Shown here: piece after piece, positions 19,741-52,277 of the stretch
Layout of the letters: each line of letters starts with the position of its first letter
How positions within the stretch are numbered: the first letter of the stretch is position 1
Source: Candidatus Woesebacteria bacterium GW2011_GWF1_31_35
Lineage (GTDB): Bacteria; Patescibacteriota; Microgenomatia; UBA8517
DNA length: 64,000 bases
NCBI GenBank assembly: GCA_001029755.1
Contig: CP011214.1
Coordinates: 365,767 to 429,766 of the forward strand
Direction of reading: 5' to 3'
Position numbers and translations under genes: made by a program
The notes under the pieces: model-generated
The model's database searches: none
Told to the model about the DNA's origin: nothing
Seen by the model: only the letters and a program-made list of their open reading frames with translations

Positions 19741-19794
19741 TCGGACTCTATCCAGTGGGATCGTTCGAGTTTTGATGGGAGTTGTCCACAGTAG

Positions 19795-20631: not shown

Positions 20632-20668
<37 letters not shown>

Positions 20669-20881: not shown

Positions 20882-21001
20882 GTCTTGGTGACTTGAGCGC
20901 GGTGGAACCACCTGATTCCATTCCGAACTCAGAAGTTAAACGCCGTAGCGCTGACGATAGTTACCGGGCAACTGGTCGCGAAAATAAGTCGTCGCCAAGA
21001 C
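20882..21001 (+). rRNA. rrf: 5S rRNA
   Basis: gtcttggtgacttgagcgcggtggaaccacctgattccattccgaactcagaagttaaacgccgtagcgctgacgatagt...gtcgccaagac. Matches the 5S consensus, and the terminal helix pairs. Confidence 0.85.
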
Positions 21002-33757: not shown

Positions 33758-34157
33758 AATCTAACCTAATATTTATTTTATCACTTGGTAGACTGGTAAT
33801 ACCAATGTCTGAAAGATAAACTTGGCTCTCTGTAGCAATTTTTATATTTTCAGAAGTAAAAAAATTATTTGTTTTAAATTTAAGTTTAATAATAGATTTA
33901 CTAAAATCATTAGAATTCGGCATTAACAAAAAACGCTTTGCATCCCATGTTTTTAATATTCCTTCAGAAGAATATGATATTAAATTTAAATTATTTTCAT
34001 TGTAATCCAGAAATAAATCAACAACTGTTGCCATATTTGCTTTGTCTCCCTCAAGATAAACACTAACATTAATTATATTTTTGGGATAAACCTGAAACAT
34101 TGCCAAGGCCATGACCAATACTGATAATATTTGAATTTTATATTCTTTTATACTCAT
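33747..34157 (-). CDS. Small secreted protein (signal peptide); unknown
   Basis: 136 aa, translationally coupled to its neighbours. Confidence 0.35.
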   Translation of the reverse strand: MSIKEYKIQILSVLVMALAMFQVYPKNIINVSVYLEGDKANMATVVDLFLDYNENNLNLISYSSEGILKTWDAKRFLLMPNSNDFSKSIIKLKFKTNNFFTSENIKIATESQVYLSDIGITSLPSDKINIRLDYEQ

Positions 34158-34978
34158 ACCTCATAGTTATCTACAATTATGCCTATATCAATGATATTTA
34201 TTATATTATCCTTGTTTACATCTGCTTCTGGTTTTACAGAAGTATTGCTTCCATAATGATCAACAACTATACCAATATCTATAATATTTACTCTATTATC
34301 TCCATTAACATCTCCAATTTTATTATTACCTGTAGCAGTTGATGTTACTGTTGCAATAGCTGTGGCCGTAGATGTTGATGTAGCAGTTGAAGTAATAGTC
34401 GCAGTTGCAGTTGGTGTTGCAGTGGTTATTGATGCAATAGTTATGTTTAAAGATGTGGTTGGTTTATTTAAAACATCTGTTGTTTGTCCTAAAACAGAAA
34501 CTGCAGTATTAGCATCAAAAGATATAACTGTGGTTATTCCTTGACCAATTGCTTTAAACTTAATACTTGCTAATATACCAGTTCCGTTTTTTGGATCTGT
34601 GGGATCGCTACCCAAAACTATCTTAGCAATGGGTGGAACAATTTGACCTGGTATAAAAACTACTGGCAAATAATTTTTTGACTCAATATTTATAGCTTGT
34701 AATATATTATTATCATATTTAATTCTCAAATCTGAACCAGTGACACTCATTCCCTTTGTATCAAGATATACATCAACATAAAATTCATCATCTTTTTTAA
34801 CAATACTATTTATGCTTGTGAGTTTAAGATCAACTCCAGCTGCCTTAATTGGTGAAGTATTCTGTCTAAACTTTAGATAATAAACGCCGATAGCTAAAGT
34901 GATAAGGATAAAAACAATAGAAAGTAAAGAAATTAATACATTCTTTTTCTTGATAAAAGAGAAGATATTTCTATTCAT
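34154..34978 (-). CDS. Cohesin-like domain protein with a C-terminal type I dockerin
   Basis: N-terminal TM; cohesin-like KDDEFYVDVYLDTKGMSVTGSDLRIKYDNNILQAINIE; Thr/Ala linker; dockerin repeats GDVNGDNRVNIIDIGIVVDHYG and ADVNKDNIINIIDIGIIVDNY. Confidence 0.6.
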   Translation of the reverse strand: MNRNIFSFIKKKNVLISLLSIVFILITLAIGVYYLKFRQNTSPIKAAGVDLKLTSINSIVKKDDEFYVDVYLDTKGMSVTGSDLRIKYDNNILQAINIESKNYLPVVFIPGQIVPPIAKIVLGSDPTDPKNGTGILASIKFKAIGQGITTVISFDANTAVSVLGQTTDVLNKPTTSLNITIASITTATPTATATITSTATSTSTATAIATVTSTATGNNKIGDVNGDNRVNIIDIGIVVDHYGSNTSVKPEADVNKDNIINIIDIGIIVDNYEV

Positions 34979-35012: not shown

Positions 35013-36740
35013 TTAGTTAAAATTTTCCACTAACACATTATAGTCAAAAATATCCACCTTACCGTTTTTGTCAATATCAGATGAAATAAAACCAGGGGAG
35101 CCATTTTTATCAAAGTTAGCAATGAAAATATAGTAATCTAAAGTATCAACTTTACCATTGTCGTCAATATCTCCTGGCAGCTGTGTGGGTATTGGAGTTG
35201 AGGTAGTTGATGAAAAAACTACAAGTGTTGCACTTCCCGGAGGAAGTGAGACTGGATATTTTGAATTGACTTTGTTTACTGGTTCATCTGTTCCAAATGT
35301 CCACGATCCGTCTTCTTTTACAGAATTTCCAGCAAAAGTGATATTTTCCCTTGAGGCATTAATTGAAGGTGCAAGCAAACGGATTGCTCGTGCTTGTGGA
35401 TATATATTTCCAGGATCAAGTGATGCTATAGTAGTGTTATAAGAGTCTCTATTAACAAGGATGATACGAAGGACATTGTCCTGAGATAAAACTGCATAGG
35501 CCCCAAGATTTGCTAAGCTTTTATCATATTCGACTTGGAGAGGGCGGGGATTTCCTTTTGTTGCTTCATGAAAAAATAACATACTATAATAGAGAGCTCC
35601 TGGTTTGTATAGTTTTGGATTCGGTCCACCTAATGTGGGGCAAAAAAGAATAGGAGCATATCCACCACATCCGCCACCATAAAAATTTATTCCAGCAACA
35701 TTATTATTGATCATCATAAATAATGTGTCTATTCCCCATAATGTTGACGCAAATGTATCGGTCACACCGACAATACCGCCTCTGCTCATTGCATTCACTT
35801 CATCAAAACGTAGAGGAATGTTTTTTTCTTTTGCAATTGTTGCGTATGCTGAAATAGTGTTATTTGTCTCTTCTGCCTTTTCTTTACTCAGCATTTTTTC
35901 AATATATTCTAGACATTCGTTTTGTTCACATACCATTGTGTTTACGTCTATACCTAGGTCTTTTGTCTTTGAAACTGGATATAAATGTACCGTGGCGAAA
36001 GAAATTTCATTTGATTCTAAAGTGATGAAATTTTTGAACCATGTTTGATTGGATATAATTGCAGGACCTGTCAGAGGGATGTCTGGTGAAATTGCGTGGA
36101 TAGCTTTTGCATAATTATCAAACTCTTGTGCGTGAATTGTACTGTTGTAGGTATCCAGTCTCAAATCTAACTCAGGAAAGCTCGTTGGTTCATTACCAAT
36201 TTCAAGAGCAAGGAGTAAATTACTACCTATTTGTTTGAAATAGGATGCTTCATTTACAATCATAGATTTTATTGTTGAATTGTAGCAACCCAAATTTAAA
36301 CCAAAGATTACAGACCAATTGACCTCTTTAGAAAATGTAAAGAGATTATCCACGTTGGCCTTAGTAAGTATTTGAGTTGGAAAAGAAGTACTAGTTTTAC
36401 AAAGATTGGGTGGTGGAGCACTTAACCAATAGGTATAATTTGTATCAGTTCCACCAAAGCGTAAAACACCCTGCCCTAATTTCTTAAGTAATTTTAGTAA
36501 TATTTGATCGTTTGAGTTATTTGGGTCAACCCCAAATAAAATCGACTTTGTTATAAAATCTTCCGAAAAACTTAAACCGAGGAAGTTAGAAGGAATTGTG
36601 TGACCTTTTATTTCAGGATGAATGGTTATTTGAATAGGATCAGATGCGCTATAAATTGTCTGTGGAATTCCTAACAAAATAAGAGCAATAATGATAATAG
36701 AAAGAAGATTATTTGATATTTGTTTTTTATAACTTCTCAT
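35013..36740 (-). CDS. Secreted clan GH-A (TIM-barrel) glycoside hydrolase with a C-terminal dockerin
   Basis: Signal peptide; acid/base-type motif LALEIGNEP; dockerin repeats GDIDDNGKVDTLDYYIFIANFD and SDIDKNGKVDIFDYNVLVENFN. Confidence 0.55.
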   Translation of the reverse strand: MRSYKKQISNNLLSIIIIALILLGIPQTIYSASDPIQITIHPEIKGHTIPSNFLGLSFSEDFITKSILFGVDPNNSNDQILLKLLKKLGQGVLRFGGTDTNYTYWLSAPPPNLCKTSTSFPTQILTKANVDNLFTFSKEVNWSVIFGLNLGCYNSTIKSMIVNEASYFKQIGSNLLLALEIGNEPTSFPELDLRLDTYNSTIHAQEFDNYAKAIHAISPDIPLTGPAIISNQTWFKNFITLESNEISFATVHLYPVSKTKDLGIDVNTMVCEQNECLEYIEKMLSKEKAEETNNTISAYATIAKEKNIPLRFDEVNAMSRGGIVGVTDTFASTLWGIDTLFMMINNNVAGINFYGGGCGGYAPILFCPTLGGPNPKLYKPGALYYSMLFFHEATKGNPRPLQVEYDKSLANLGAYAVLSQDNVLRIILVNRDSYNTTIASLDPGNIYPQARAIRLLAPSINASRENITFAGNSVKEDGSWTFGTDEPVNKVNSKYPVSLPPGSATLVVFSSTTSTPIPTQLPGDIDDNGKVDTLDYYIFIANFDKNGSPGFISSDIDKNGKVDIFDYNVLVENFN

Positions 36741-36835: not shown

Positions 36836-38680
36836 TTATTCAGTAGCAGGGACTTCTGTCGGAATACCTGTAGCAGGAATTTCAATAGGAGGTACTATTA
36901 CTGGTGATGGAGAAGACTGTGGAGGAGTTAACCCTTCAATTGCTTCGAGTTCTTTCTTGGCTGTTTCAAAATCTTTTGAATCTTTACCTAAAAGAGATAA
37001 TGTAAGATTCATTTGTTCTTTTGCCTTTTCTAATTGTTTATCTTCTTTATAAGCCATAGCTAAGTTATAGTGTGCATTAGCAAGATCAGGCTTTGCGACG
37101 ACTGCTAATTCAAATACTTTAGCTGCATCTGCAAATTTTCCTTGAGCATAGTAAATTCCGCCTAATTTTATTCTTAGTGTAGGATTTATTGGATCTAAAT
37201 AAATTGCTTGACTATATGATTGAATTGCAAAAGCATCAGCATCTTTTGCAAATGATGTGACACTATTATATACATCACCTAAATTTTCCCAACTAGAAGC
37301 ACTTCTAGGGTTTAGTGTTGCTGCTGCTTTAGCTTCTTGAACTGTTTGCTGTATAAGTTGAGTTAGTGTTTTTTTATCATCCTCACTTAAATTTTCAATC
37401 TTAGCCAGTGACCCTGCCAAAGCTATATCTATACTAGCTGAGACTAAATGATATCTATCAACATAAGGATTAATATTAATTGTTTTATTAATCTCTTCAT
37501 ATGCTTTAACACCATTTCCTTTAGACATTTCAGTTATTACCTTGGAAAAAGTAAATTCTGCATAGAAATATTTAAATGCAAAAAAGGAAATAAAGGCAAT
37601 TATAATTGCGAGTGGAACAGAAATAATAATAATTGGGGTTTTAGAACTAAAATTGCCTACATTTTCATGAGTCATTGTATTAAGTGCAAAAAGCAACATC
37701 ATTAATGGGAAAGCTGAAACTGGTAAAGGTAAAATTAAGGAAATTACAAAGATAATAAATAAACTTACATAAATTGGATTATTTAATTTTAATTTTCTTA
37801 ATGAGAAATAGAATATTGCCAAAAATGCCAAAAGTCCAATTATTCCTACTTCACTAAGTATTGTTAAAGGTGTATTGCTTGAAACTAAAAATCTTGATGT
37901 CCATGTATCATTTGAATTAGCTGTAATTGGTCTATATTTATTATAACTTTCTAAATAATTTGCAGGTCCAATTCCAAGTAAGGGAGATTGTTTTAGAGTA
38001 TCTATTGCAATTGACCAACTGGTAGATAATTTAGGAAGTTTAAGTGCATTGTTTTTATTAGGTAATATTTGATAAAAGGATACAAAAGTTCCAACAAGAA
38101 TTATAAAACTAGCAATTCCGTAAAATATATTTTTAGCAATTTTTTCTTTTTTGAAAACTTTATAAAAAGCAACAGGAAGAATTGCTATGTAATATGTAAA
38201 GGAAGTTATTAAATTACCAAAGGTTGAGAAATTCTTTTGAATTAAACCAACAAAAGATGCAATTTGTACTCCTGCTGCAATTAAAGTGGATAATACTAAT
38301 ACGAATTCAAGATCTTTTTTTTCTCTTTCTTGTAATTGTGTTGTAAAGAAATAAATTAATGAAGAAAGAACTATAAATGTTGCTGTTCCTGGAACAAAAA
38401 AGGCATCAAACTTATTAGGAGAAGCAATTAATCCAGAAACAATATAAATAACAGAAAATATAACAATAAAGATATCAATTTTAGAAGTAGAAAGCTTAAA
38501 ACTATTACTTGTTAAACCTCCAATTATTTTTACAATTGACAAGAGTAAAACTCCAGAAACTAATAATAATAATTTTGCCGTTTCAAAATAATTAGGAAAG
38601 ATAGGGAGTAGAAAAAGAGGGAATAAAAATATAATAGCATAAAAAATATATTTATCTAGTAACTTAATTACTTTAGTCAT
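36836..38680 (-). CDS. O-antigen ligase (Wzy_C)-like polytopic membrane domain fused to C-terminal TPR repeats
   Basis: About 12 TM helices in the first ~370 aa, then TPR-like repeats (AHYNLAMAYKEDKQLEKAKE etc.). Confidence 0.5.
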   Translation of the reverse strand: MTKVIKLLDKYIFYAIIFLFPLFLLPIFPNYFETAKLLLLVSGVLLLSIVKIIGGLTSNSFKLSTSKIDIFIVIFSVIYIVSGLIASPNKFDAFFVPGTATFIVLSSLIYFFTTQLQEREKKDLEFVLVLSTLIAAGVQIASFVGLIQKNFSTFGNLITSFTYYIAILPVAFYKVFKKEKIAKNIFYGIASFIILVGTFVSFYQILPNKNNALKLPKLSTSWSIAIDTLKQSPLLGIGPANYLESYNKYRPITANSNDTWTSRFLVSSNTPLTILSEVGIIGLLAFLAIFYFSLRKLKLNNPIYVSLFIIFVISLILPLPVSAFPLMMLLFALNTMTHENVGNFSSKTPIIIISVPLAIIIAFISFFAFKYFYAEFTFSKVITEMSKGNGVKAYEEINKTININPYVDRYHLVSASIDIALAGSLAKIENLSEDDKKTLTQLIQQTVQEAKAAATLNPRSASSWENLGDVYNSVTSFAKDADAFAIQSYSQAIYLDPINPTLRIKLGGIYYAQGKFADAAKVFELAVVAKPDLANAHYNLAMAYKEDKQLEKAKEQMNLTLSLLGKDSKDFETAKKELEAIEGLTPPQSSPSPVIVPPIEIPATGIPTEVPATE

Positions 38681-38818: not shown

Positions 38819-41800
38819 TTAATTATTATTATTTTGTAATTCTATTACCCACCAATTAAATTCAACATCGGTATCTAAAGTATCTAAAAACCCAACTGTA
38901 AAGTAACCAATATCTTTACTCTTAACGTACAAAACTTTATTCTGTGTTGATGAAAGGGGAGTTACATAGATTAAAGTATCATTATTAATCTTAGGATTTA
39001 TTATTTTGACCTCATTAGTACTTGCAGTTAATATTGCTTTTCCAGCTGTTGCATTAGTATTAATTTCCCCAGGCACTATTTGAGCCGAATCTGTAGCAGT
39101 AAGAGGTGCGTCGGCGATAACTACAATATTTCCTTTAAGTTTTAAATTTCCTGCAATTTCCACATTTCCTGAAAATGTTATATCTCCATTTGTTTCAATT
39201 TTTATCTTTCCTGCCATTATTTCAACAGGGGCTAAAGCTAATGATTGAACAGAAAGTGCACTATCTAAAGAATTTATTGATTTAGTTGTTAAATTATCTG
39301 ATACAAATAGAGAAGTTATAGCAGCACTGCCTGTAACAAAGAAATTATTGGTAATTATTTCAGATGAAACAAGTTTATCAATACTTGCTGAAGCTGTAGC
39401 TGTGTTTATATTCCAATTAACACTTTCGGCTAAGATTTTTTGACTTTCATCGACACTTCTTAATAATTCTTCTATTTGATCAAGTTTAGAAGATTCAATA
39501 TTATCAGCATATAATGTTCCTGAAATTGTTGCATCGCTATCTACCTCTAAACTATTTGCAGCAATTTCACCACTAAAACTAGCATTTCCTGAAGCATCAA
39601 TTGAGGCAACTTCCAAGTCATCCACTCCTTTAATGGCAAGTCTTGATGCAACTTGACTATTGTCAGGTTGCAAATCAATTATTAAATCAGTATTGGAAAC
39701 GGGAGAGATTAAATTGGTTTGAACAATTGGAGAAATTATTTTATTTTTAATAATTAAATTATCAACTGTAGCTTGGAAAGCGACAAAGTTTTTGCTAACA
39801 AAATCTGTGGTTTCAATTGCACCAGCTTTAATGTTTGCCACGACCACTTCGGCAAAAGATCCAATCTTTTCAGTAATGCCAGTTGGAGTGGAGACAGTGT
39901 AATTGGCAATTGGATTGCCTGAAAGTGTGATGTCACCAGTATTACTAATGGCAAGATCTGGGTCGTAATAATTGTTGGCTACAAATACTAAAATAGTGTC
40001 AGTAGGATTATCTGGGTCCCAATTTTCAAGAGCCGTACCTACAATTTTTCCTGCTTTAGTGGCCTTAGTGCCACGACCAGGGTTATTTGAAGGTGTAATT
40101 GGATCACCAATATTTATTATATTTGAATTAAAACTGATTTTGACAGGAAGACGTCCAGAAAGAGCTACTGGAAGTGGATGATCCTTCTCTTCTATTGAGT
40201 TTTGACCAGTTGCTGTAAAATCACCCCAATTTTGAGTGACAATACCAATTGGATTGTCCGAAGTTGAGGTAGTTTTTGTAAGTTTAGAAATTTGGCGTGT
40301 TTCTGTAGAAACAATATTTCCGTCTTTATCTGATTTTGAATAAATAGTAGTGGTCATTTCTGGAGAAGTCATGACAATGTCTCCAAAATCCACATCAGAT
40401 TTAGTTGGATAAATCTCAGCATAATCTGTAAAAGGTCCGGCATCACAGTCATAAAGTAGGGTTGCACCTGAGGCATCCCAACATACAACATTGTTCGTTG
40501 TGCCAGTAGTATCAAGGGTTAAATAGATACTACCTGCTCCGGAAGCACCTAAAACAAGTGTTGCTTCAGTTGGAGTGGTGTCACCAATGCCGACATTACC
40601 AGTTCCTTTAATTACCATCTTAGTAGACATTGTTTGTATTCCTAATCCAGAACCTAAAGTTGTTCCATTTTGGAAAAAGATATCACTGAGTCCAGTCCCC
40701 GTGCCTAAACCAGCTTGAATAACCATATTCCCGCCATTAACATTAGAACCGCTATCAACAGTTCCACCAGACGCAATAGTTAATGCTCTACCTGCAGTTC
40801 CAGCGGCAGTATCTTCTATCCAAATTTTCCGTGAGGCAGCATTACCTAAACTAAGAATTTCAGTTGGACTTGTTGTCCCGATGCCGACCTTACCTGATCC
40901 CGGCATGAGGGCAAGATCGGCTGTGGCAGCAGTTATTATTTGATTGGTGGTGGTTGCACCGGAGAAGGTTATGCCTGCACCGGCCCCGGTTAAGGCAATC
41001 GCATTTGTAGCGGCGGTAGAGTTGGTTAATATTCCATTCATGGTGATGGCTCCGATTCCGGTCATATCACCGGTGGTATCGATATCCCAATCATTTGAGT
41101 ACAATGCCAAGGTTCCTGCATTACCAATAGTAACTACATCAACTCCCGTTGCTCCAGTGCCGATATTTATAGTGTCAATACCAGTGCCGGTACCCATGTT
41201 TATAGTTCTGGCTACATTTGAAGCACCAACATTAATGATTTGGGAAGCAGCAATGGAGTCAAGGGTGACAGTTCCTGTAGTAGCCTGAAGAGTTAAGCCG
41301 GTGGCGCCAAGAATAGCCAGTGTTCCGTCAGCATCAATATTGTCTCCATTAACAGATAAGTCCCCGGCTGTAGTAATATTTCCCGTTGCGCCAGCCACCT
41401 GGAAGAGAGAACCGGTGCCGACAGAGAGAGTGGCAGAAGGATTGGTAACACCGATACCGACATTACCGATTTTATCAATTACCATCGCATCTGTCAGTGT
41501 TCCATCTTTATTTATATATAAATCCATCTGGCTGCTAATTCTGCCGGCAGAAACGTCGGTCACTCTGCTCCAACCAATCTGCCCGAGCACAGTATCGCCA
41601 ACAGCGGAAGCGGTCGAACGGACTTCGAATATGCCTCCTATGTTACTGGCGCTAGCACCCGAAGAAGACAAAACTAAAACAGAATTAGTACTAGCACCCG
41701 TGGCAACTTCTAAAATTTTACCGTTAGTATTTCCACTTGTCGGATCCGTTGTTCCAACACCAACATTACCAGTATTTGTTATCACAAATTTTGGAGTTCC

Positions 41801-44497
41801 TGATGCAGAAGCTGTGAACAAATCTCCGGCTTTTGTTGAATTTACTGTTAGTGCAGCTAAAGTGTTGTTTATAGTGTTATTTACTAACCATGACCCATTT
41901 ACCAATTGTTGATAAGAATTAGATGCATCTGGTGCATCTGTTAACATTATTGTTCCAGTACCTACAGAATTCAGTATGTCATTTCCCCCTAATTTTAAAT
42001 CTCCAGAAAGAAAAGTATTAGTTGCTGTTATTGCAATTGTTCCATCAGTATCATTATCAATTTTCTCTCCATATGCAAATGTAATGTCTCCACCTACTCC
42101 TGTTGAAAATGTTAATCCTGTTGTTCCTTGAACTACTAGGTTCTCAGCTAAGGTTAAACCACCTGAAGTGTTAAAATCAGTGTTAGCAGCACCAATATTT
42201 ATAATTGGGAAATTACCTGCATCCATGGCAGTTGTGACTGTTCCAGAAATTAATATACCTGTTGTTAATGTTCCACCTGCATCTGCAATATTAATACCAG
42301 TTGTTATATTACCTGCTGAGTTTGTAATGGTTAGTCCATTAGTCATGTTTGAATCTGCTGCAGAATCAATTTTTATTCCATTTGTAACAACAGTTGTTCC
42401 TGCAGTTGTTGTGTCTAATTGTTGAACTAGAATTAAATTTTCAGTAGCTACATCAGTAAATGATCCTGCTACTGCATTATTAACAACTAATCCATTTTGT
42501 GTTGTTGCTGATCCACCGTTATTGACTAAATTCATAGTCCAGGCATCTAAAGCAGCTGTTGGAGTCCAACCAAAGGTTGTTGCATTAGTTCCCATAGCTA
42601 GTGTTAATGCACCATCTGGAGTTGTTAATGCATTCCATTTCAAAGAGGATGCTACTATTGTTCCTGTTATTGTTCCATTACAAGCTAAGTTTCCGTTTGA
42701 GTTAGTTATTGTACATCCGGTTCCTCCAAAACCTCCTGCAAGATTAACATCACCCGTAGCTGTCCCATTTAGGTTTAGGGCATCTGCTCCTTTACTATCT
42801 ATTGATAGTGCTATATCAGTATCACCACCTGTTGCTGCTAGTATAACAACTCCACCTGTTGCTGCATTTGCTATAGTTAATTCATCTACAGCTGATGCTA
42901 CAGATGTAAATCTTAAAAATTCGTTACCATTAGTGTCTAGGATATCAGCACCTATTAATTTCAAATCACCAGCCATTGTGGTATTTCCTGCATAATCAAT
43001 CGAAAATTTTGAAGTAGGGGAAACACCTGACTGAAAATCAATAAAATTATATCCTGTCGCGGCTGATGCTACTGTTCCACCATACAAAGATCCTGATGTT
43101 ATATTGGCATTAGTTGCATTAATAAATCCATTTACAGCTCCACCTGCTGCTGCACCTTCAAAAGTAAGGTCTAGTGTACCAGTACCATCTGGATTGATAG
43201 TGATTGCACCATTTGTTGTATTTGCAGTTGAGATTGTCATTGCTTGGCCTGTAACAGCAAACGTTCCTGAAGTTGACTCAATTGTTGGTGAGGCTGCTGC
43301 TATTTGTAATTTACCAGTTGAATCAATGTATGGAATTGTTGAAGCCCCAGTTCCTGGAGGAAACCCTTGTAATGTCTCTGAGTTTAGAGCATATCCAACA
43401 GTTGCAATTCTAATTCTTGGAGTTGCCTCTGCATCTGCCCCAATTGTGATTCCTAACCAGACATCAGCATTTTCACTAAAAACTGTAGCTGCAATTGCTC
43501 CACCACAGGTAGATCCTAAAAGTGTGGAGAATATTCCATCTCCATCTGGAGTAATTGAACAAGTTGTAGAATCCCAAAGAGTGGTTCCAGCTGTATCAGC
43601 ATCATATAATTTAAAGACTAAATTTGTAGCTACAATTTTAGGATTACCGAGGTTGTCTGTAAGTCTACCTTGAAAAGATAAAAATCTATTTGGAGTTTCT
43701 AAAGCTGTTGGGTAGGCTGAAAGTTTACTGGCATTTTTAAATACTTGATCATAGATAGCATATCCTGAGATTGAAGTAATAAAAACCAATATGGCTATAT
43801 GAATGTAAGTTGCAACAGGGTATGAATGATATCTTTTGTACCAATTTGGTCTATTAAAGAATACTTTATGAAATACATCTTGTAGTCTTGGTTTTGAATC
43901 TAATTTATTTAAAATTAACTCTTGAATGAATCTATATGGAGAATTTTTAGGGATTTGATTTGTACTTACTGGAAAACTCTTGTTTTGAAACTCATAATAT
44001 TTCTTTAACGAGGCTGAATTTCTATCATAACTTCCCATAGGAAGGTTATTTAAATATTCTTTAGCTCCACCTTCAGTATCTTTCTTCCAAGCTAAAAACT
44101 TTCTAATATCTGAAAGATAATTCTTTCTGGTATTATTTGATACTTTTTGATTTATTAAGAACTTATCAAAATCCAATATTTTATTAGGTTCAACAACTTT
44201 CTTTACTCCGTTAACTGAAACATTACCGATTCCTGCCATGAAAGATTCACCAGTTGACTGAGAAAAACTTCTTAATGTTGATAGTCTTCTGTTAATTGTT
44301 TTTAAAGAAGATAAACCTAATTGAGAAGTAATATATTCTTTTACTAAACTTGAATCAATTATTCTTCCATTAGCCCAATTGAAAAAATTAGTAATATCTG
44401 ATTTGTAATACTTTAAAGAACTAGAAGAAACTCCGTGGGAGGAGAGATATTTTATAAAATCGTTTACTTTTTTACTAACTTCATTTAAATTTAACAT
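38819..44497 (-). CDS. Giant (1892 aa) surface protein: two N-terminal integrase-N-terminal-SAM-like domains, one TM helix, ~1600 aa of Gly/Thr/Ala-rich beta-helix-like repeats
   Basis: SSSLKYYKSDITNFFNWANGR...SLKTINRRLSTLRSF and NTRKNYLSDIRKFLAWKK resemble the XerC/D core-binding domain. TM helix YPVATYIHIAILVFITSISGYAIY. A long low-complexity repeat region follows. Confidence 0.65.
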   Translation of the reverse strand: MLNLNEVSKKVNDFIKYLSSHGVSSSSLKYYKSDITNFFNWANGRIIDSSLVKEYITSQLGLSSLKTINRRLSTLRSFSQSTGESFMAGIGNVSVNGVKKVVEPNKILDFDKFLINQKVSNNTRKNYLSDIRKFLAWKKDTEGGAKEYLNNLPMGSYDRNSASLKKYYEFQNKSFPVSTNQIPKNSPYRFIQELILNKLDSKPRLQDVFHKVFFNRPNWYKRYHSYPVATYIHIAILVFITSISGYAIYDQVFKNASKLSAYPTALETPNRFLSFQGRLTDNLGNPKIVATNLVFKLYDADTAGTTLWDSTTCSITPDGDGIFSTLLGSTCGGAIAATVFSENADVWLGITIGADAEATPRIRIATVGYALNSETLQGFPPGTGASTIPYIDSTGKLQIAAASPTIESTSGTFAVTGQAMTISTANTTNGAITINPDGTGTLDLTFEGAAAGGAVNGFINATNANITSGSLYGGTVASAATGYNFIDFQSGVSPTSKFSIDYAGNTTMAGDLKLIGADILDTNGNEFLRFTSVASAVDELTIANAATGGVVILAATGGDTDIALSIDSKGADALNLNGTATGDVNLAGGFGGTGCTITNSNGNLACNGTITGTIVASSLKWNALTTPDGALTLAMGTNATTFGWTPTAALDAWTMNLVNNGGSATTQNGLVVNNAVAGSFTDVATENLILVQQLDTTTAGTTVVTNGIKIDSAADSNMTNGLTITNSAGNITTGINIADAGGTLTTGILISGTVTTAMDAGNFPIINIGAANTDFNTSGGLTLAENLVVQGTTGLTFSTGVGGDITFAYGEKIDNDTDGTIAITATNTFLSGDLKLGGNDILNSVGTGTIMLTDAPDASNSYQQLVNGSWLVNNTINNTLAALTVNSTKAGDLFTASASGTPKFVITNTGNVGVGTTDPTSGNTNGKILEVATGASTNSVLVLSSSGASASNIGGIFEVRSTASAVGDTVLGQIGWSRVTDVSAGRISSQMDLYINKDGTLTDAMVIDKIGNVGIGVTNPSATLSVGTGSLFQVAGATGNITTAGDLSVNGDNIDADGTLAILGATGLTLQATTGTVTLDSIAASQIINVGASNVARTINMGTGTGIDTINIGTGATGVDVVTIGNAGTLALYSNDWDIDTTGDMTGIGAITMNGILTNSTAATNAIALTGAGAGITFSGATTTNQIITAATADLALMPGSGKVGIGTTSPTEILSLGNAASRKIWIEDTAAGTAGRALTIASGGTVDSGSNVNGGNMVIQAGLGTGTGLSDIFFQNGTTLGSGLGIQTMSTKMVIKGTGNVGIGDTTPTEATLVLGASGAGSIYLTLDTTGTTNNVVCWDASGATLLYDCDAGPFTDYAEIYPTKSDVDFGDIVMTSPEMTTTIYSKSDKDGNIVSTETRQISKLTKTTSTSDNPIGIVTQNWGDFTATGQNSIEEKDHPLPVALSGRLPVKISFNSNIINIGDPITPSNNPGRGTKATKAGKIVGTALENWDPDNPTDTILVFVANNYYDPDLAISNTGDITLSGNPIANYTVSTPTGITEKIGSFAEVVVANIKAGAIETTDFVSKNFVAFQATVDNLIIKNKIISPIVQTNLISPVSNTDLIIDLQPDNSQVASRLAIKGVDDLEVASIDASGNASFSGEIAANSLEVDSDATISGTLYADNIESSKLDQIEELLRSVDESQKILAESVNWNINTATASASIDKLVSSEIITNNFFVTGSAAITSLFVSDNLTTKSINSLDSALSVQSLALAPVEIMAGKIKIETNGDITFSGNVEIAGNLKLKGNIVVIADAPLTATDSAQIVPGEINTNATAGKAILTASTNEVKIINPKINNDTLIYVTPLSSTQNKVLYVKSKDIGYFTVGFLDTLDTDVEFNWWVIELQNNNN

Positions 44498-44952
44498 TTT
44501 CCGCGATTTATTTCCTAGTCTCAGATTATATTGATTATACTGATTATACTAATAATAATATACTGATAACACGTGTCAAGAGGCTATTTAGGCTTGAAAT
44601 TTTTATATTAATTATTGCTTTAATAAACGTATTTCACACAGCTTATAATATAATTTCCGCATACATTTTCTTCAATATATATATCAAAGTATATATTGTA
44701 ATCTTGATATAACAACAATAATATTTGTTATAGGTTCAAAATACCTGTGCGTAATATACTATCTGCGGGAATATGCGGGAATAATTAATAGTGTTAAATG
44801 GTTTAACTTAAATAGCGGAAATCTAAGGCCAGAGCTTTGAATTTGTTTAATGTTAATAATTATCTTTTAAATTCAGTTTTAGCAATTCTTCTTGGTAAGT
44901 GATAAATTAAATCCTTGTTGTTTTTGCCCTATATTATGAGTATATTTATCTA

Positions 44953-45396
44953 ATGGAAGCTAAAGGAGAAAAATCTAATAAATTAATAATATCTGTGTTT
45001 ATTATTACTTTTCTAGTAATTATTTTAATTGTTTTACTTTTCTTTATCAAGAACATAACTTCAGTTTTACCTAAGGCAAAAAATTTAAATTCCGCAGTTT
45101 CTGTTTCTTTTTCAAATTCATATATTTTTGCTTCACCTGTAAGAGCAAAAACTAATGGGGAAGGTATTAGAATTACTGTATTTTTATTGGACGACAATGG
45201 TTTAGGAATTTTTGATAAGAAAGTTATTCTTGGTAATTTAGATAGTCCTATTAAAGTAAAAGATATACAGAGCCTAACTGACGAAACAGGGAAAGCTATA
45301 TTTGATATAAGTTCCAGTTCAAGTGGTGTCTTTTTTATTGAAGCGATTGTTGACAGTAATAAATTACCACAAAGGGTCAAGGTTGTTTTTGATTAA
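44953..45396 (+). CDS. Small N-terminally anchored extracytoplasmic protein
   Basis: 147 aa, signal anchor, beta-rich. Confidence 0.4.
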   Translation: MEAKGEKSNKLIISVFIITFLVIILIVLLFFIKNITSVLPKAKNLNSAVSVSFSNSYIFASPVRAKTNGEGIRITVFLLDDNGLGIFDKKVILGNLDSPIKVKDIQSLTDETGKAIFDISSSSSGVFFIEAIVDSNKLPQRVKVVFD

Positions 45397-45401: not shown

Positions 45402-46172
45402 ATGTTAATTACCACAACTCCTGATATTACTATTAGTGCAACTATAGGAAGTCCGAAGATGGTAATCTATGGATACGCACCCAGTAATTCAAATGTTTTT
45501 TTAAACAGTATCGGGGTATCTTCATATACCCAGGCTGATAATGATGGTTATTATCTTTTTGATGCAGTTTATACATATGATTTTAGTTATCCTGAAATTT
45601 GTGTTCAGGCAGTTGATGAAAAGAAAAGAACAACGCAGCCAACTTGTATTCCACCACTTCCAGCTGAAAAACTGATATATGAAGTTGGTCCCATATTTCT
45701 TTCTCCCACAATCTCTTTAAGTCAAAATAGTGTAGTGAAAAGCGAACAAGCCTATGTGGAGGGAAAGACGTCTCCAAACAAAGAAGTAAATATCTATATT
45801 GCCAAAAATGAAAACTTAAAAAGTTTTTCTTTAGTTGATGCTGTAAATGCTTATTATGTTCCAGTGTTTCAATCGAAATCTAATTCTAATGGCAATTTTG
45901 CTTTCAGTTTGCCCACATCTGATTATTCAAACTATAAAATATTTGTTTCTAGTCGTTTTGGAGATAATTTATCCGCCAAAAGCAATACTTTAACTTTTGT
46001 GGTGACCTCAAAGATAGAATCTTTTCTAGACAGGTTATTAGGATTTATTTTAAAGAACAAATTACTCTCAATAATTATATTGGAGATACTTATCGTCATT
46101 ATACTTATCTTTAAGCTCTTAAAATTGACTACAAGAGGGAAGAAAGATATTCAAAAACAACAAATGATTTGA
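45402..46172 (+). CDS. Secreted beta-rich protein with a C-terminal TM anchor. Its last ~190 bp are duplicated at 47523-47712.
   Basis: 256 aa, C-terminal LLSIIILEILIVIILIFKLLKLTTRGKK. Confidence 0.45.
   Translation: MLITTTPDITISATIGSPKMVIYGYAPSNSNVFLNSIGVSSYTQADNDGYYLFDAVYTYDFSYPEICVQAVDEKKRTTQPTCIPPLPAEKLIYEVGPIFLSPTISLSQNSVVKSEQAYVEGKTSPNKEVNIYIAKNENLKSFSLVDAVNAYYVPVFQSKSNSNGNFAFSLPTSDYSNYKIFVSSRFGDNLSAKSNTLTFVVTSKIESFLDRLLGFILKNKLLSIIILEILIVIILIFKLLKLTTRGKKDIQKQQMI
45957..46146 (+). repeat. Direct repeat copy 1 (~190 bp, ~90% identical to copy 2)
   Basis: Aligned by eye with 47523-47712: ...gaatcttttctagacaggttattaggatttattttaaagaacaaattactctcaataattatattggagatactt... Confidence 0.7.
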
Positions 46173-46256: not shown

Positions 46257-47441
46257 ATGGAAAATGGCATAATTAAGAGGGATATCTTTGATAAACTTGA
46301 AAGTTTTTTGGGTACAAAAAATATAATTGTACTTCATGGTGCTAGGCAAGTTGGGAAAACTCATATTATGTACTTTATTGAAAAGTTTCTTCAAAAAAGG
46401 GGGGAAGAAACTCACTATATTGATCTTGAAGATTCACGATTTGTAGAGATACTAGACCGAGGTGTTGATTCATTTACTGCGTATCTTAAGGGTGAGGGAA
46501 TTAAAAACAAAGTAACGGTTTTTATAGATGAGATTCAATATCTTCAAGATCCGTCATCTTTTTTAAAATTGATTGTAGATCATCATCCTGAAATTCAACT
46601 TATTGTTTCAGGTTCTTCAAGTTTTAATATCAAATCAAAATTTTCCGATTCATTAGTCGGTAGAACTGTAAATTTTGAGATTTTTCCACTTTCCTTTTCT
46701 GAATTTTTAAGATTCAAAAAGATAAATACTTCAATGACTGACAAGTTACTTAGTTTGTACAATGAATATATGGCCTACGGAGGATACCCAAAAATTGTTT
46801 TAGATGATGATATAAAGCATAAAGAAATTTATTTACAGCAGATAATTGATACCTATATTAGGAAAGATATTTCAGATCTTGCCAATGTCAAAGATACTAA
46901 GAAATTCAATGACTTATTAAAAGTATTAGCATCATTTAGTGGGCAACTTTTAAAAGTGTCTGAGCTTTCAGATATTTGTGGTTTGGCCTTACAAACTATA
47001 AATAGTTATTTAGAGATATTGGAGGAAACATATATTATAAAGCTAGTTTCTCCGTTTTCAACAAGTGCCAAAGTAGAGATAGCTAAAACTCCTAAAATAT
47101 TTTTTTATGATACAGGAATACTCCAAATGCTTTGGTTTAAAAGGCTCCAAAATGGAAATGTTGGAAATATTTTTGAAACCAGTGTCTTTTCCGAACTCGT
47201 TAAAAAGTTTGGGATAGAAAATATTAACTATTGGAGAAATAAAAATATGAATGAAATTGATTTCATCTTAAATAAAAATAATGAAATACTGCCAATTGAG
47301 GTTAAAAGTAATTTTTCTCAGTTTAAAAAATCAAAAATAAATTCATTTTTAGAAAAATATAAAATTAAGGACTTTTATGTAATAGGATTATTAGGAGAAA
47401 AGAACAAAGAATATTACAAATACCCTTGGGAGATTATTTAA
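46257..47441 (+). CDS. AAA-family ATPase with a DUF4143 domain (second copy)
   Basis: Walker A LHGARQVGKTHIMY, Walker B FIDEIQ. Same architecture as 30188-31423. Confidence 0.7.
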   Translation: MENGIIKRDIFDKLESFLGTKNIIVLHGARQVGKTHIMYFIEKFLQKRGEETHYIDLEDSRFVEILDRGVDSFTAYLKGEGIKNKVTVFIDEIQYLQDPSSFLKLIVDHHPEIQLIVSGSSSFNIKSKFSDSLVGRTVNFEIFPLSFSEFLRFKKINTSMTDKLLSLYNEYMAYGGYPKIVLDDDIKHKEIYLQQIIDTYIRKDISDLANVKDTKKFNDLLKVLASFSGQLLKVSELSDICGLALQTINSYLEILEETYIIKLVSPFSTSAKVEIAKTPKIFFYDTGILQMLWFKRLQNGNVGNIFETSVFSELVKKFGIENINYWRNKNMNEIDFILNKNNEILPIEVKSNFSQFKKSKINSFLEKYKIKDFYVIGLLGEKNKEYYKYPWEII

Positions 47442-47522: not shown

Positions 47523-47712
47523 AATGGTGATAATCTATCTTCCAAAAGTAATACATTAAACTTTGTAGTTACTTCAAAAACAGAATCTTTTCTAGATAGG
47601 CTACTAGGATTTATTTTAAAGAACAAATTATTCTCAATAATTATATTGGAGATACTTGTAGTCATTATTCTTATCTTTAAGCTCTTAAAATTGACTACAA
47701 AAGGCAAGAAAA
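47523..47712 (+). repeat. Direct repeat copy 2. It contains the remnant ORF 47496-47753, which encodes a copy of the C-terminus of gene 45402-46172.
   Basis: The ORF translation ...SKSNTLNFVVTSKTESFLDRLLGFILKNKLFSIIILEILVVIILIFKLLKLTTKGKK parallels the upstream gene's C-terminus. Confidence 0.7.
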
Positions 47713-47755: not shown

Positions 47756-48793
47756 TTATTTTAATGTGTAATAGGTTGATCTTCCTTTACCTTTACGTTC
47801 GATTAGTTCTAAATCAAGCAGTTTTCGAAAGTCGATTGTGCGTGTTGCCTTGGCTCTATTTGTTAGTTTTGCGTAATTACGATCAGTGATAAAACCATTA
47901 TTTTTAATATAATCAACAATTTTTTTGTGAAATGGTTCAAGTTTGGCATTTGGTGTTTTTTCTAATTTAGGTAAAAGTTTTTGAACACGTAGGAGTTCGT
48001 CAATTAAACCGTCAGTAAAATATTCAAGCCAGGAGGTAAAATCGATAGAATCTTTTATCTCGTTGTAATCACCATATTCTCCAACTGTTTGAAAGTACTT
48101 AGTAATATTTTGATTGTAATAGTTTTCGAAACTAAATAAATTAAAAGTATTAAGTCCCATTTTAGCTAGTAGTATTTTTGTAGCTAGACGAGTAGTTCTA
48201 CCATTGCCATCCATGAATGGATGGATAATAACCATTTGTTTATGAAATATTCCTGCAATTATTAAAGGGTTAATTTTATTACTATTTTCATTTGTAAATT
48301 TAATTAAATCTTTGACAAGATTTTTAACTATTTCAAAATCAGGGGGCAGATATACTATTTTGCCTGTTCTTGGATCATTTACGATGACAGGTTTTAGTCG
48401 GATTTTTCCAGATTCATTGTTTGGAAGAAGATCTTTAGTGATTTGTATATGAATATCAAGTATAAACTTAAGTGTTAATTCAAGCTTTTTTGAACGAAGT
48501 AATTTATTAAAGTTTTCTAAAGCTACATTATAGTTAAGAACTTCTCTTTCACTGTCTCGAATGTTAACCGGTTTTGATTTTAGTATATTTTTAACTTCCG
48601 TAAGTGGCAATGGATTGCCTTCAATGCTGGTTGAAGAATATGAAGAAACTTCTTGTGCTTTTTTTTCAAATTCGACCAAGACGATTTTTGAAAACTGACG
48701 CTCATTTAAATCTCTAACAAGATTGTTAATTTTGGTGATATTACTTAAGAGCTGATCGGTGATAGAATATTTTGGAGTAAACATACTAGTCAA
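47756..48793 (-). CDS. Fic/DOC family protein (putative AMPylase)
   Basis: Canonical Fic motif HPFMDGNGRTTR. Confidence 0.85.
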   Translation of the reverse strand: MTSMFTPKYSITDQLLSNITKINNLVRDLNERQFSKIVLVEFEKKAQEVSSYSSTSIEGNPLPLTEVKNILKSKPVNIRDSEREVLNYNVALENFNKLLRSKKLELTLKFILDIHIQITKDLLPNNESGKIRLKPVIVNDPRTGKIVYLPPDFEIVKNLVKDLIKFTNENSNKINPLIIAGIFHKQMVIIHPFMDGNGRTTRLATKILLAKMGLNTFNLFSFENYYNQNITKYFQTVGEYGDYNEIKDSIDFTSWLEYFTDGLIDELLRVQKLLPKLEKTPNAKLEPFHKKIVDYIKNNGFITDRNYAKLTNRAKATRTIDFRKLLDLELIERKGKGRSTYYTLK

Positions 48794-48839: not shown

Positions 48840-49820
48840 TTACTTCTTAGGAAGATTGTCTTTGAATTTATCTTTTAATTCTTCAACTTCTGTAATTTCT
48901 TCTTCTAATTTCTCTTCAAGTTTGACCTGTTTTGATTTAAGTTTCTTATAGACTAAGACTATTAGAAGAGTGATAATTGCAATGAACAAAACAATTGCCA
49001 TGATCGGCCAAACTGGGATTACCCAAAGACTGGTATTTTCTAAAAGTACTTTTCCTGCTTCACCATAGTTTGCAGTTAAATCGATACTATACTTACCAAA
49101 CATCCAATTTTTACCCAATTCTGTTTTATAAAGTCTTTTAGCATCAGGGAATATGTTTTTAGTTTCTAAAATAGTTTCTCCAACATTTTTACCAAACCAA
49201 TTTCTAAGTACTAATTGTCCCTTAGGGGTTATATGGTAACCACCTTTATTTAATATCTCAAAAGTAACTGGTACTGGACCAAACTGCAAGAAAACTGGTA
49301 CTTTAAAGTTACTTATAAAAGCTGATTCAGTAACTGGACCATTTATTCTAATACTAACTAAACCAACAATTCTTGGAGAAACAGTTGATAGTTGCTCGTT
49401 AATAGTTGTTGCTTCTGGAAGTTGTCCTACTTGTTCAAAAATAATTGCAACATACCTTCCACCAGGAAGGGTGTCTTTAGGAACTGTAACTTTAAAATTA
49501 ACCTTTAATACGTCTCCACTTGCAATGGTTGCTTTCTCGTAAGGAAGTTTTACCCAAGTATTCTCCTCATTTTCAAGTAAAGTAGGGGAGCCATCATCAT
49601 TATTTACAATAAAATTAACAACTTTGATGTTGCCTGAAACTGGAACAATCGATTCATTGAAAAACTTAATTTGCATGTTTTCAGTTTTTCCTGCATCAAT
49701 TACTATAGTTTGTCTTGCAGGAGCAACTACTAAAGGAAGTCTATCTTGTGCCTTAACTTCAAATGCAATAAATACTCCCAAAATCAAAATTGTTATTGTT
49801 AGGGCAAGTTTATTTTTCAT
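48840..49820 (-). CDS. Secreted protein with a C-terminal TM anchor and charged coiled-coil tail (DUF916/DUF3324-like architecture)
   Basis: Signal peptide MKNKLALTITILILGVFIAFEVKA; C-terminal WVIPVWPIMAIVLFIAIITLLIVLVYKKLKSKQ. Confidence 0.4.
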   Translation of the reverse strand: MKNKLALTITILILGVFIAFEVKAQDRLPLVVAPARQTIVIDAGKTENMQIKFFNESIVPVSGNIKVVNFIVNNDDGSPTLLENEENTWVKLPYEKATIASGDVLKVNFKVTVPKDTLPGGRYVAIIFEQVGQLPEATTINEQLSTVSPRIVGLVSIRINGPVTESAFISNFKVPVFLQFGPVPVTFEILNKGGYHITPKGQLVLRNWFGKNVGETILETKNIFPDAKRLYKTELGKNWMFGKYSIDLTANYGEAGKVLLENTSLWVIPVWPIMAIVLFIAIITLLIVLVYKKLKSKQVKLEEKLEEEITEVEELKDKFKDNLPKK

Positions 49821-51362: not shown

Positions 51363-52277
51363 TTACCTTTTCTTTGTCAAGTACTTCTTCAGGTTCAAAA
51401 TTAATAAAACTAAGAATAAACTTATTGCCATTAATGAAAATGGAAAAGCAAATGTAGTTACTTCAGTTTTTTTAATTTCTGCGCTTTCATCCATTCTAAA
51501 TTCTAAATTAGCCCTATAAATTCCAATAAGAGGCTTTTTAGCTATTTTGCAATCTATTAATTCTTCGTTATTAATACAAGGAATTTTTCTAGAATAACCC
51601 GAAAGAACATTTAAAGGAGCAAGAGTTAATGTGGAATTTAAATTCGTGCCTTGAACAATAATTTTGCCTGTTGGTTTCCAAAATGAATTTCCATTATTTT
51701 GTAAAATTAATGAGTAATTAATATTTGAAAGTGAATCAATTATAATTGGAGCTTTAAAAGTTGTTATCTCTGCTGATTTTTTTGGATTCCCGTCTTTTGA
51801 AATAGTGAGTAAAATATTACTTCCAATCTGTGTTTTGTAAAAAGATGCATTTTCTTCCAAAATGTCTGTGGGTTTGTCAGTTTCAAAGACTAAAGTTAAA
51901 AAATGATCTGTTTCAGAAGTACCCTCAGGTGGTGAAATTACTAAACTGACATCAATTTTTTCTGTAGATTTAATTGTAAATGGGTTTTTATCATACATTA
52001 CCCAGTCAGGAGCAAGATTTTCTGTTAAATCCACATTGCCATTTTCATCTGAAGGGACAAAATAAACTACTTTGGGAGTTAGGATTGTATCTCCGCCAAG
52101 ATTTTCTATACTAAAAACTTGTCTTATTTCTTTGTCTGGTTTAATCATCACTTCAAAAATTGGGGGAGTAATAGATAATGAAATTGCATTTTGTGCGTTT
52201 ACAATATTATTAGATAAAAATATAGAAATTAATAAAGATAATAGAGATAGTATTGTAACTAATTTATATTTTTTCAT
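51363..52277 (-). CDS. Secreted protein with a C-terminal TM anchor + KKYLTKKR tail
   Basis: Signal peptide MKKYKLVTILSLLSLLISIFLSNNIVNA; C-terminal AISLFLVLLILNL. Confidence 0.4.
   Translation of the reverse strand: MKKYKLVTILSLLSLLISIFLSNNIVNAQNAISLSITPPIFEVMIKPDKEIRQVFSIENLGGDTILTPKVVYFVPSDENGNVDLTENLAPDWVMYDKNPFTIKSTEKIDVSLVISPPEGTSETDHFLTLVFETDKPTDILEENASFYKTQIGSNILLTISKDGNPKKSAEITTFKAPIIIDSLSNINYSLILQNNGNSFWKPTGKIIVQGTNLNSTLTLAPLNVLSGYSRKIPCINNEELIDCKIAKKPLIGIYRANLEFRMDESAEIKKTEVTTFAFPFSLMAISLFLVLLILNLKKYLTKKR

Follow-up and report, generated by a model that had tools for sequence, protein, structure and literature searches.

The subject of this analysis is a giant protein of 1892 amino acids (aa) encoded on the minus strand (38819..44497) of a 64,000-nucleotide stretch of DNA, hereafter the window, from Candidatus Woesebacteria bacterium GW2011_GWF1_31_35 (contig CP011214.1, positions 365,767 to 429,766). 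Judging from profile matches, the N-terminus of this protein is a genuine pair of core-binding (CB) domains of tyrosine recombinases without the catalytic domain. This pair is predicted to reside in the cytoplasm and to be connected, through a single transmembrane (TM) helix, to a huge extracytoplasmic part that, as modeled, is a tail-fibre-like fibre. We are highly confident of the architecture, topology and family assignment taken jointly. The best overall explanation appears to be a giant surface fibre whose CB tail keeps DNA binding, a proposition that we consider evenly poised between true and false.

The initial annotation, made from the sequence of the window alone, described this architecture as unusual. 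It is indeed unusual in general, but not rare: the giant, CB-tailed architecture is a hallmark of a large family of Microgenomates proteins. In many lineages of this family, one small CB domain is stably split over two adjacent genes, and natural fused versions, such as the window protein, exist alongside. CB-tailed giants and the split CB domain are known parts in a new combination that is widespread and undescribed: full-text searches of the literature and a reading of PMC7143001 and PMC11665869, on Microgenomates and Patescibacteria, gave no description of either, the nearest remark being that the largest hypothetical membrane protein of one Microgenomates genome is 2228 aa long (PMC7143001).

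Architecture of the giant protein and its family

The gene is an uninterrupted frame of 1892 codons plus a stop, and homologs of similar length, such as P0218 (1878 aa), share both of its ends. CB domain 1 (residues ~8-85; 44243..44476, minus strand, as are all parts of the giant gene listed below), which contains SSLKYYKSDITNFFNW...KTINRRLSTLRSF within residues 26-78, is a complete tyrosine-recombinase core-binding/SAM-like domain. In a Pfam search with the full protein, PF02899 (Phage_int_SAM_1) matched residues 11-80 with E 1.2e-9 and 38.8 bits against a cut-off of 22.3, and with the 250-aa N-terminal fragment, the values were E 8.6e-12 and 45.6 bits. CB domain 2 (residues ~104-175; 43973..44188), with NTRKNYLSDIRKFLAWKKD within residues 121-139, was recognized over residues 110-139 by PF13495 (28.5 bits against a cut-off of 27, when the 250-aa N-terminus was scanned alone) and by the first half of the PF02899 profile. 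Both SAM-like recombinase segments that had been noted in the initial annotation were thus recovered at the same places, with PF02899 and PF13495 above the Pfam cut-offs. Helices A-B of CB domain 2 are well conserved (NTRKNYLSDIRKFLAW), with a predicted local distance difference test (pLDDT) score above 90 at residues 100-140 of the AlphaFold2 (AF2) model. Helices C-D have diverged (AKEYLNNL...SYDRNSASLKKYYEF), with low pLDDT at residues 150-180, and this second half of the domain aligns with the N-terminus of the split-type giants described below.

The motifs KxYxSD (helix B) and KTINRRLSTLR (helix D) of CB domain 1 are invariant in the family (alignment A3); K66, T67, N69, R70, R71, L72, S73, T74, L75 and R76 are the same in all 38 aligned tails, and a conserved KRK in the C-D half of CB domain 2 occupies the place equivalent to the basic cluster of CB domain 1. 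Such invariance of the tail motifs points to purifying selection acting on a basic surface and argues against decay of an integrase. In a comparison with the PDB, the family profile A3 matched, weakly, the N-terminal domains of integrases and XerA (integrase N-domain 3nrw at E 9e-4); phmmer with residues 1-250 gave no match to PDB sequences, and neither did a PADLOC scan of the tail produce a match.

As the initial annotation had it, no catalytic recombinase domain follows. Catalytic-domain families, including PF00589 with its R-H-R-Y active site, yielded no match at E<=1 in the Pfam search with the full protein, and the NCBIfam models of XerA, XerC, XerD and XerS aligned to residues ~7-104 only, with scores of 15-36 bits where the cut-offs are 178-335. 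The catalytic domain is a defining feature of recombinases, and since it was searched for and not found, the protein is not one of them. The tails of the giants share with tyrosine recombinases (XerC/XerD, archaeal XerA, and phage and integron integrases) the CB family, the four-helix layout and the helix B and D motifs, but have no catalytic domain, so that no recombination is possible. The giants further differ from these enzymes in that their CB units occur in tandem (0.5 to 3 or more), precede a TM helix and are divided between two polypeptides in many lineages.

Between the CB domains and the membrane lie cytoplasmic juxtamembrane helices (residues ~186-227; 43817..43942; AF2 helices 189-200, 203-214 and 218-225), with RPNWYKRYH just before the TM helix, which are conserved in homologs P0001-3, P0217/8 and P0230. 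The single TM helix, a predicted signal anchor (residues 228-257; 43727..43816), coincides with the hydropathy maximum and with an AF2 helix of pLDDT >90; the strongest hydrophobic segment of the entire protein spans residues ~226-250 (Kyte-Doolittle 1.69). Residues 1-300 are basic (42 K+R vs 22 D+E), and the remainder is acidic and contains Cys. Because the sequence contains no N-terminal signal peptide and the N-terminal part is folded and basic, an N-in, C-out topology is predicted, and hydropathy, charge distribution and the AF2 model all point to a bitopic protein. An LPXTG motif with a hydrophobic tail is absent from the C-terminus, where the sequence ends ...DVEFNWWVIELQNNNN.

The extracytoplasmic part comprises ~1630 aa and is rich in Thr, Gly and Ala; across residues 301-1350, Thr accounts for 13-20%, Gly for 12-18% and Ala for 8-15%, and Lys and Arg hardly occur. 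Hydropathy, the AF2 model and composition thus bear out the initial description of a single TM helix followed by a huge Gly/Thr/Ala-rich region. The first element outside the membrane is a beta-sandwich with two conserved Cys (residues ~268-366; 43400..43696; AF2 strands 273-364, pLDDT 91-97), the best-conserved part of the family, with 50-70% identity across representatives, for which Foldseek found weak Ig/macroglobulin-like matches only. The rest of the conserved N-proximal module (residues 367-522; 42932..43399) was delineated by BLAST similarity to the giants of three related loci (L004, L001 and L003). The next ~860 aa (residues ~523-1384; 40346..42931) form a variable middle region rich in Thr, Gly, Ala and Asn, which is poorly conserved between family members and hypervariable between lineages.

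The repeats that had been attributed to this part of the protein were not found: the DNA of the giant gene contains no tandem repeats, and the protein no internal repeats at E<=1e-3, leaving only the motif G-x-V-G-I/V-G-x-T-x-P-T (GxVGIGxTxPT), which occurs four times in the middle region, at residues 910, 1011, 1202 and 1300. A pectate-lyase-type beta-helix, also suggested initially, is not supported, because no Pfam, NCBIfam or PHROG family was significant on the ectodomain segments. The middle region showed a weak PHROG tail-fibre match (E 0.0046), and there was a weak Bactofilin-like match (22.4 bits, below the cut-off), the AF2 models covering the N- and C-terminal parts only. One relative, the giant of locus L001, carries PF13229. 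The five antisense open reading frames (ORFs) of 85-203 aa inside the gene all lie in one antisense frame, as expected from codon bias and not from coding, in agreement with their initial dismissal as spurious.

The conserved distal module at the C-terminus (residues ~1385-1892; 38822..40345), defined from 96 homologs and an AF2 model, consists of a beta domain, a long helix and a terminal beta-sandwich ending ...VLYVKSK..G.F.VGF...D..FNWW. The model of the last 493 aa (mean pLDDT 78) was compared with the PDB using Foldseek and matched the Pam1 tailspike 7eea (E 1.4e-3, probability 1.0, root-mean-square deviation 2.2 Å over 73 residues), with further matches to the R2 pyocin fibre 6ct8, 2vbm and the Sf6 tailspike. 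BFVD contributed a further 63 matches (E<=1e-3), the majority of them to tail fibres or to K1-lyase C-terminal domains. These fold matches are at the domain level only, with low global TM-scores. It is therefore the distal domains of tail fibres and tailspikes that the C-terminal 490 aa resemble, and by analogy with its phage counterparts, the fibre is probably trimeric.

The distal domains of phage tail fibres and tailspikes (those of cyanophage Pam1, 7EEA, R2 pyocin, 6CT8, and proteins with the K1-lyase C-terminal domain) are thus alike at the fold level to that of the giant, and the motif GxVGIGTxxP is shared with phage tail fibres and with cellular 'tail fiber domain-containing' Peptidase_S74 proteins. 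Unlike the phage fibres, however, the giant is the product of a cellular gene on the chromosome, in a locus that is conserved and not a prophage, and has an N-terminal TM anchor, and Pfam did not detect Peptidase_S74 (PF13884) in the window protein; some homologs of the distal module carry Peptidase_S74 or Hint domains. Giant adhesins (Ebh/Embp, SiiE and LapA-type, and Giant1-5 of Apilactobacillus, PMC12863079) are likewise very large, extended and fast-evolving, and often are products of the largest gene of a small genome, but they contain detectable tandem Ig-like or other repeats, in contrast to the giant described here. They are anchored by LPXTG, type I secretion system retention or a C-terminal TM segment, and none has a recombinase-derived cytoplasmic tail.

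The family was collected in an exhaustive HMMER search with residues 1-420, with clusters at 50% identity as representatives. This yielded 477 representatives at E<=1e-30, mostly of 1,200-6,346 aa, which have in common the juxtamembrane segment RPNWYK.YH, the TM helix and the extracytoplasmic beta-sandwich; residues 190-420 of the window protein are 58-70% identical to representatives of 1,200-3,000 aa. The window protein contains the entire family core, that is, the CB units, the RPNWY-type segment, the TM helix and the beta-sandwich (...PNRYLSFQGRLT...VFxLYDA...), as well as the C-terminal module ending ...VLYVKSK..G.F.VGF...FNWW. With regard to phyletic distribution, which the initial annotation had singled out for examination, the informatively named sources are all Microgenomates: Woese-, Shapiro-, Beckwith-, Collier-, Pace-, Ames-, Blackburn-, Gottesman-, Levy- and Roizmanbacteria. 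Only bulk third-party annotation records of metagenome-assembled genomes bear the titles 'uncultured Gammaproteobacteria' and 'Pseudomonadales', and a few fragments are labeled Marinimicrobia, Methylococcales or Eisenbacteria; we regard all of these names as unreliable. A lookup with the exact sequence of the window protein retrieved no record. The NCBI labels of family members are 'hypothetical protein' or, for fragments, 'site-specific integrase, partial'; mislabeling as an integrase, anticipated from the sequence, has thus occurred, and such labels on giants inflate the counts of mobile elements in genomes of the candidate phyla radiation (CPR).

CPR bacteria, or Patescibacteria, account for a major share of bacterial diversity, and how they build their surface, attach to hosts and regulate their genes is poorly understood. 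The giant family is widespread in Microgenomates and often is encoded by the largest gene in a genome of ~1 Mb, in a conserved surface locus, which makes a central role in the cell envelope or in host contact probable. In Roizmanbacteria RIFCSPLOWO2_01_FULL_37_12 (loci L072 and L076), we observed two fused CB-tailed giants, each followed by a Wzy_C-TPR gene (see below), indicating that the whole module can be duplicated inside one small genome.

Fused and split forms of the tail

In three relatives, from a JGI contig, GCA_034680565.1 and the complete Woesebacteria genome CP066686.1 (locus L004), an all-SAM-like protein of 164-170 aa is encoded immediately upstream of the giant, and the giants themselves are of 2271, 2444 and >4655 aa. 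A separate tail gene of ~165 aa is present in ~40-58% of relatives, and the cut falls in the middle of the second CB domain. Among the classifiable loci at the species level (species-representative genomes of GTDB), 26 of the 62 are fused and 36 are split; among cluster representatives with intact N-termini, 86 of 146 encode one or more CB units in cis, the other 60 being of the split type. Tails across the family contain 0.5, 1, 2, or 3 or more CB units.

In split loci, the small proteins consist of CB domain 1 and helices A-B of CB domain 2 and end a few residues past ...NYLSDIxQFLxWLE, whereas the giants of these loci start with M..LP.ISPE.I..YQ.EI...S.AT.KRK.SL..FF.WA, which corresponds to helices C-D. 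This pattern of the cut was seen in ~32 of the 36 split loci. Compared with PF02899, the N-terminus of the giant alone covers profile positions 39-81 only (E 0.023), but when the C-terminus of the small protein and the N-terminus of the giant were joined, one full match (positions 1-83, E 1e-9 to 1e-15) was obtained in 11 of 13 pairs, and in the remaining 2, both halves still matched PF02899. These complementary halves make it fairly probable that in split systems, the half-domains fold together, docking the small protein on the tail of the giant. If complementation is true, the coexistence of split and fused forms amounts to natural fragment complementation and to a Rosetta-stone argument for the interaction.

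In most split loci, the two genes overlap by a few bases or are separated by a gap of 1-16 nt, with extremes from a 76-nt overlap to a ~200-nt gap. Programmed frameshifting or readthrough was considered and rejected: the relative frames are evenly spread over 0, +1 and +2, the stop codons vary and the gaps are variable. Because of this even spread of frames and the variation of stop codons, the split is a true gene split, with no recoding.

In the window protein, the junction lies at residues ~140-147 (WKKDTEGGA; 44057..44080) and matches the stop/start between the small CB gene and the giant gene of split relatives. Residues 12-137 align to the small protein encoded in CP066686.1 and residues 147-522 to residues 18-384 of the corresponding giant, so that the window protein appears to be the covalent form of an assembly that elsewhere consists of two chains. 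A frameshift that artificially joined two genes would have undermined the initial annotation; the sequence comparisons point instead to a genuine fusion, because the closest full-length homologs, P0217 (63% identity) and P0218 (58%, with the same C-terminus), are colinear with the window protein through the same junction, because 26 of the 62 species-level loci are fused, and because 86 of the 146 representatives are. The junction in P0217 and P0218 reads W-K/Q-K/E-..-T/S-E/G-G-G-x-K-E/K-Y/F-L.

On a neighbor-joining tree of the ectodomain base, parsimony required 26 changes of architecture, compared to ~46 on shuffled data. By this crude count on a rough tree, architecture is clustered but labile across the family.

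Function of the cytoplasmic tail

Under the explanation that we favor, the conserved beta-sandwich base, the fast-evolving Thr/Gly/Ala-rich shaft and the distal module of tail-fibre fold would together form a fibre outside the cell, and the CB modules would retain, in a non-catalytic form, the one activity known for CB domains in the contexts studied, the binding of duplex DNA via helices B and D. Such binding would physically couple the fibre base to the nucleoid, or to particular sites on the DNA, with the protein serving as a static tether or else as a regulator bound to the membrane. In split systems, the small protein would dock non-covalently on the tail of the giant by joint folding of the half-domains. 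A trimeric fibre would place three to nine CB units in a cluster under the membrane, which would offset the weak affinity of single CB domains. The sequence feature that favors DNA binding is the identity of the most conserved residues of the tail, namely, the basic cluster of helix D, KxYxSD of helix B and KRK of CB domain 2. For DNA binding as the job of the tail, with the fibre base coupled to the nucleoid, we would put the likelihood a little below even. The DNA-binding domain of a recombinase seems to have been domesticated without the enzyme, on the cytoplasmic side of a surface fibre.

Several observations weigh against this explanation. Isolated CB domains of Xer, Cre and lambda Int bind DNA weakly alone, and a conserved candidate DNA site was not found. 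Contacts with anionic lipids or with a protein partner would account equally well for the conserved basic residues, and some of the conserved motif simply represents the hydrophobic core of the fold. The C-D half of CB domain 2 of the window protein is diverged and is modeled with low confidence. Furthermore, Foldseek with the 480-aa N-terminal model retrieved no recombinase structure from the PDB, and nothing at all at E<=1e-3; the CB domains probably were missed because this model is multi-domain, with a predicted TM-score (pTM) of 0.37.

An appreciable but clearly smaller probability attaches to the possibility that the CB tail is a pure protein-protein or membrane adaptor that has lost nucleic-acid binding. 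Equally doubtful, in our estimate, are the specific forms that such an adaptor might take: clustering or oligomerization of the tails, binding of anionic lipids, or recruitment of the Wzy_C-TPR protein or of cytoplasmic assembly factors. In its favor, CB units range freely in number from 0.5 to 3 or more, as modular spacers or adaptors would; the CB domain tolerates splitting and reassembly, itself a protein-protein interaction; conservation extends to the juxtamembrane helices; the gene next to that of the giant encodes a TPR protein, a type of scaffold classically associated with peptide binding; and no candidate DNA site was found. However, the most conserved residues of the tail form a Lys/Arg cluster on the helix that contacts DNA in recombinases, and to our knowledge, every characterized member of PF02899 is a DNA-binding module.

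The layout of the giant, with a cytoplasmic N-terminal DNA-binding fold, one TM helix and an extracytoplasmic C-terminus, as predicted here, is the same as in ToxR, CadC and TcpP. This likeness, together with the strong promoter-like site and the three tandem 9-mers upstream of the giant gene (see below) and the releasable DNA-binding subunit that the split forms offer, invites the view that the giant is a membrane-tethered transcription regulator or signal transducer, in which the ectodomain would be a sensor of contact or tension and the CB tail would exert control over genes. Such a regulator could work while still anchored, like ToxR and CadC, or once set free, which proteolysis would accomplish in the fused forms and dissociation of the small subunit in the split forms, although each of these versions strikes us as improbable. 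In ToxR, CadC and TcpP, the DNA-binding domain is an OmpR-type winged helix, for which the giant shows no Pfam match (Trans_reg_C), whereas that of the giant is a recombinase CB domain, and their sensor domain is small, whereas the outside part of the giant is a fibre of 1,600 aa, reaching ~6,000 aa in relatives. Fast-evolving shafts of 1,600-6,000 aa look like structural fibres more than sensors. Once freed, the small subunit would be left with only half of a domain, which probably would not be folded; there was no sign of a site-2-protease-type partner or of a conserved operator; and CPR genomes have few regulated operons.

A regulatory role for the DNA-binding tail that we favor, whether ToxR-like or of the release type, is an outside chance that is already counted within our estimate for DNA binding. 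The same low likelihood applies to the specific scenario in which the tail binds DNA and the fibre serves as a direct transmembrane link from the host-contacting surface to the chromosome of an ultra-small episymbiont, with contact or tension altering DNA binding via release of the tail in fused forms or of the small subunit in split forms. By analogy, the logic of release would be similar to that of Notch and SREBP or of anti-sigma factors, derived in this case from a domesticated, split recombinase domain, and this comparison, too, is a long shot.

For a non-catalytic fold of recombinase origin that attaches DNA to a large fibrous structure, there is a parallel in Ndc10, a tyrosine-recombinase fold domesticated in the CBF3 kinetochore complex of yeast. 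Ndc10, however, keeps the whole recombinase fold, is soluble and eukaryotic, and no homology is claimed beyond the fold family; the Pfam match of Ndc10_N to one joined sequence was not significant (E 0.028).

Finally, the reading of the gene as a real or decayed integrase, a mobile element, a variation system of the shufflon or diversity-generating retroelement (DGR) type, or an artefactual fusion of two genes, to which the 'site-specific integrase' names given to fragments by NCBI pipelines, the separate genes for the CB part and the giant in many relatives, and the hypervariable middle of the protein might seem to point, has a negligible residual probability and is refuted for practical purposes, given that no catalytic domain was found and the invariant motifs oppose decay, that chromosomal synteny is conserved, with the same neighbors in dozens of species, and that independent homologs of 58-63% identity run colinearly across the junction and 26 species-level loci are fused. 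Within positions 30000-56000 of the window, there are no att-like or flanking inverted repeats, silent cassettes, or template/variable repeat pairs, and shufflon and DGR were rejected for lack of such cassettes, inverted repeats and repeat pairs.

Gene neighborhood and other features of the window

The window has a GC content of ~30% and is syntenic with CP066686.1 across ~10 genes; the divergent Big_1 gene, the upstream block of genes for secreted proteins and the downstream Wzy_C-TPR gene that characterize the family locus are all present. The Wzy_C-TPR gene (36836..38680, minus strand) encodes a polytopic protein of 614 aa with ~10 TM segments and C-terminal TPR recognized by Pfam; its Wzy_C (O-antigen-ligase-like) match (E 1.4e-5, 25.4 bits) is below the cut-off of 31.7. 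This gene is located directly downstream of the giant gene in the window, in loci L001, L004 and L005, and in 10 further loci, a count that refers to loci whose DNA reaches far enough and in which similarity is detectable. Comparison of the protein with the PDB produced TPR matches only, which speak neither for nor against a role in glycosylation. That it O-glycosylates the Thr-rich shaft in the manner of PglL is only an idea.

Divergently from the giant gene is encoded a small bitopic protein with an Ig-like Big_1 domain (44953..45396, plus strand; Pfam E 5e-6, 27 bits, below the cut-off), which is 56% identical to its counterpart in locus L004 and occupies the same position and orientation in 25 of 80 related loci. 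Further upstream, four minus-strand genes (48840-49820, 49826-51340, 51363-52277 and 52283-53014) that were delineated by synteny with L004 (1623-6003 in that locus), with 39-65% identity, encode secreted or anchored proteins. All of these have a signal peptide, two also have a C-terminal TM anchor, and none belongs to a Pfam family. Such a block, comprising four to five genes in family loci, is present in 25-31 of the 80 loci. The products of 48840-49820 and 51363-52277 are paralogs with a signal peptide and a C-terminal TM anchor, and those of 49826-51340 and 52283-53014 are secreted paralogs that share a C-terminal TQPAGxY...IP motif. The layout of the block is presumably comparable to that of the Gram-positive loci for cell-surface complexes of the WxL/DUF916 type, of which it is reminiscent.

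In the window, a Fic gene and an AAA_14 gene have been inserted as a pair into this conserved block. The AAA_14/DUF4143 ATPase (46257-47441, plus strand) matches the PADLOC candidate defence family PDC-S01 (E 1.7e-84), and the Fic protein (47756-48793, minus strand) matches SoFic (E 1.3e-43), also a candidate defence family. A 187-nt direct repeat with 88% identity (45959-46145 and 47525-47711) brackets the ATPase gene; it duplicates the 3' end of the neighboring gene 45402-46172 and looks like an insertion scar.

The best promoter-like site of the giant gene, TTGACA-16-TATTAT (44552..44579, minus strand), is a near-consensus match only. Between this site and the ATG of the giant, there are three tandem copies of the 9-mer AGTATAATC (44524-44550), and further upstream, in AT-rich surroundings, two tandem copies of the GC-rich 10-mer TATTCCCGCA (44764-44783). 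Both lie in the intergenic region 44498-44952 and are possible operator-like elements.

Downstream of the Wzy_C-TPR gene, also on the minus strand, two secreted dockerin proteins are encoded, one with a GH79 C-terminal beta domain (35013-36740) and the other with a dockerin only (34154-34978). Dockerin genes were not found to be conserved beside the giant gene in the 80 related loci; the occurrence of dockerins in a CPR genome suggests a cohesin-type surface assembly. In loci L001 and L003 (2300-4950), comEC (PF03772) and comEA (SLBB+HHH_3) are located ~3-5 kb upstream of the pair of CB and giant genes, on the opposite strand, with leuS in between. This proximity may be plain synteny and would be of interest if the tail binds DNA.

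The window also contains an rRNA operon (9675-21000, plus strand), the genes of which are heavily interrupted by introns and insertions. The 16S gene is in three pieces (9675-10017, 11075-11236 and 12193-13314), with ORFs in the gaps (10384-10986 and 11401-12243), and a group I intron (16944-17199) interrupts the 23S gene (14974-18649). Past the annotated end of the 23S gene and before the 5S gene (20884-21000), there is another group I intron match (19424-19694), flanked by ORFs 18720-19235 and 19772-20386.

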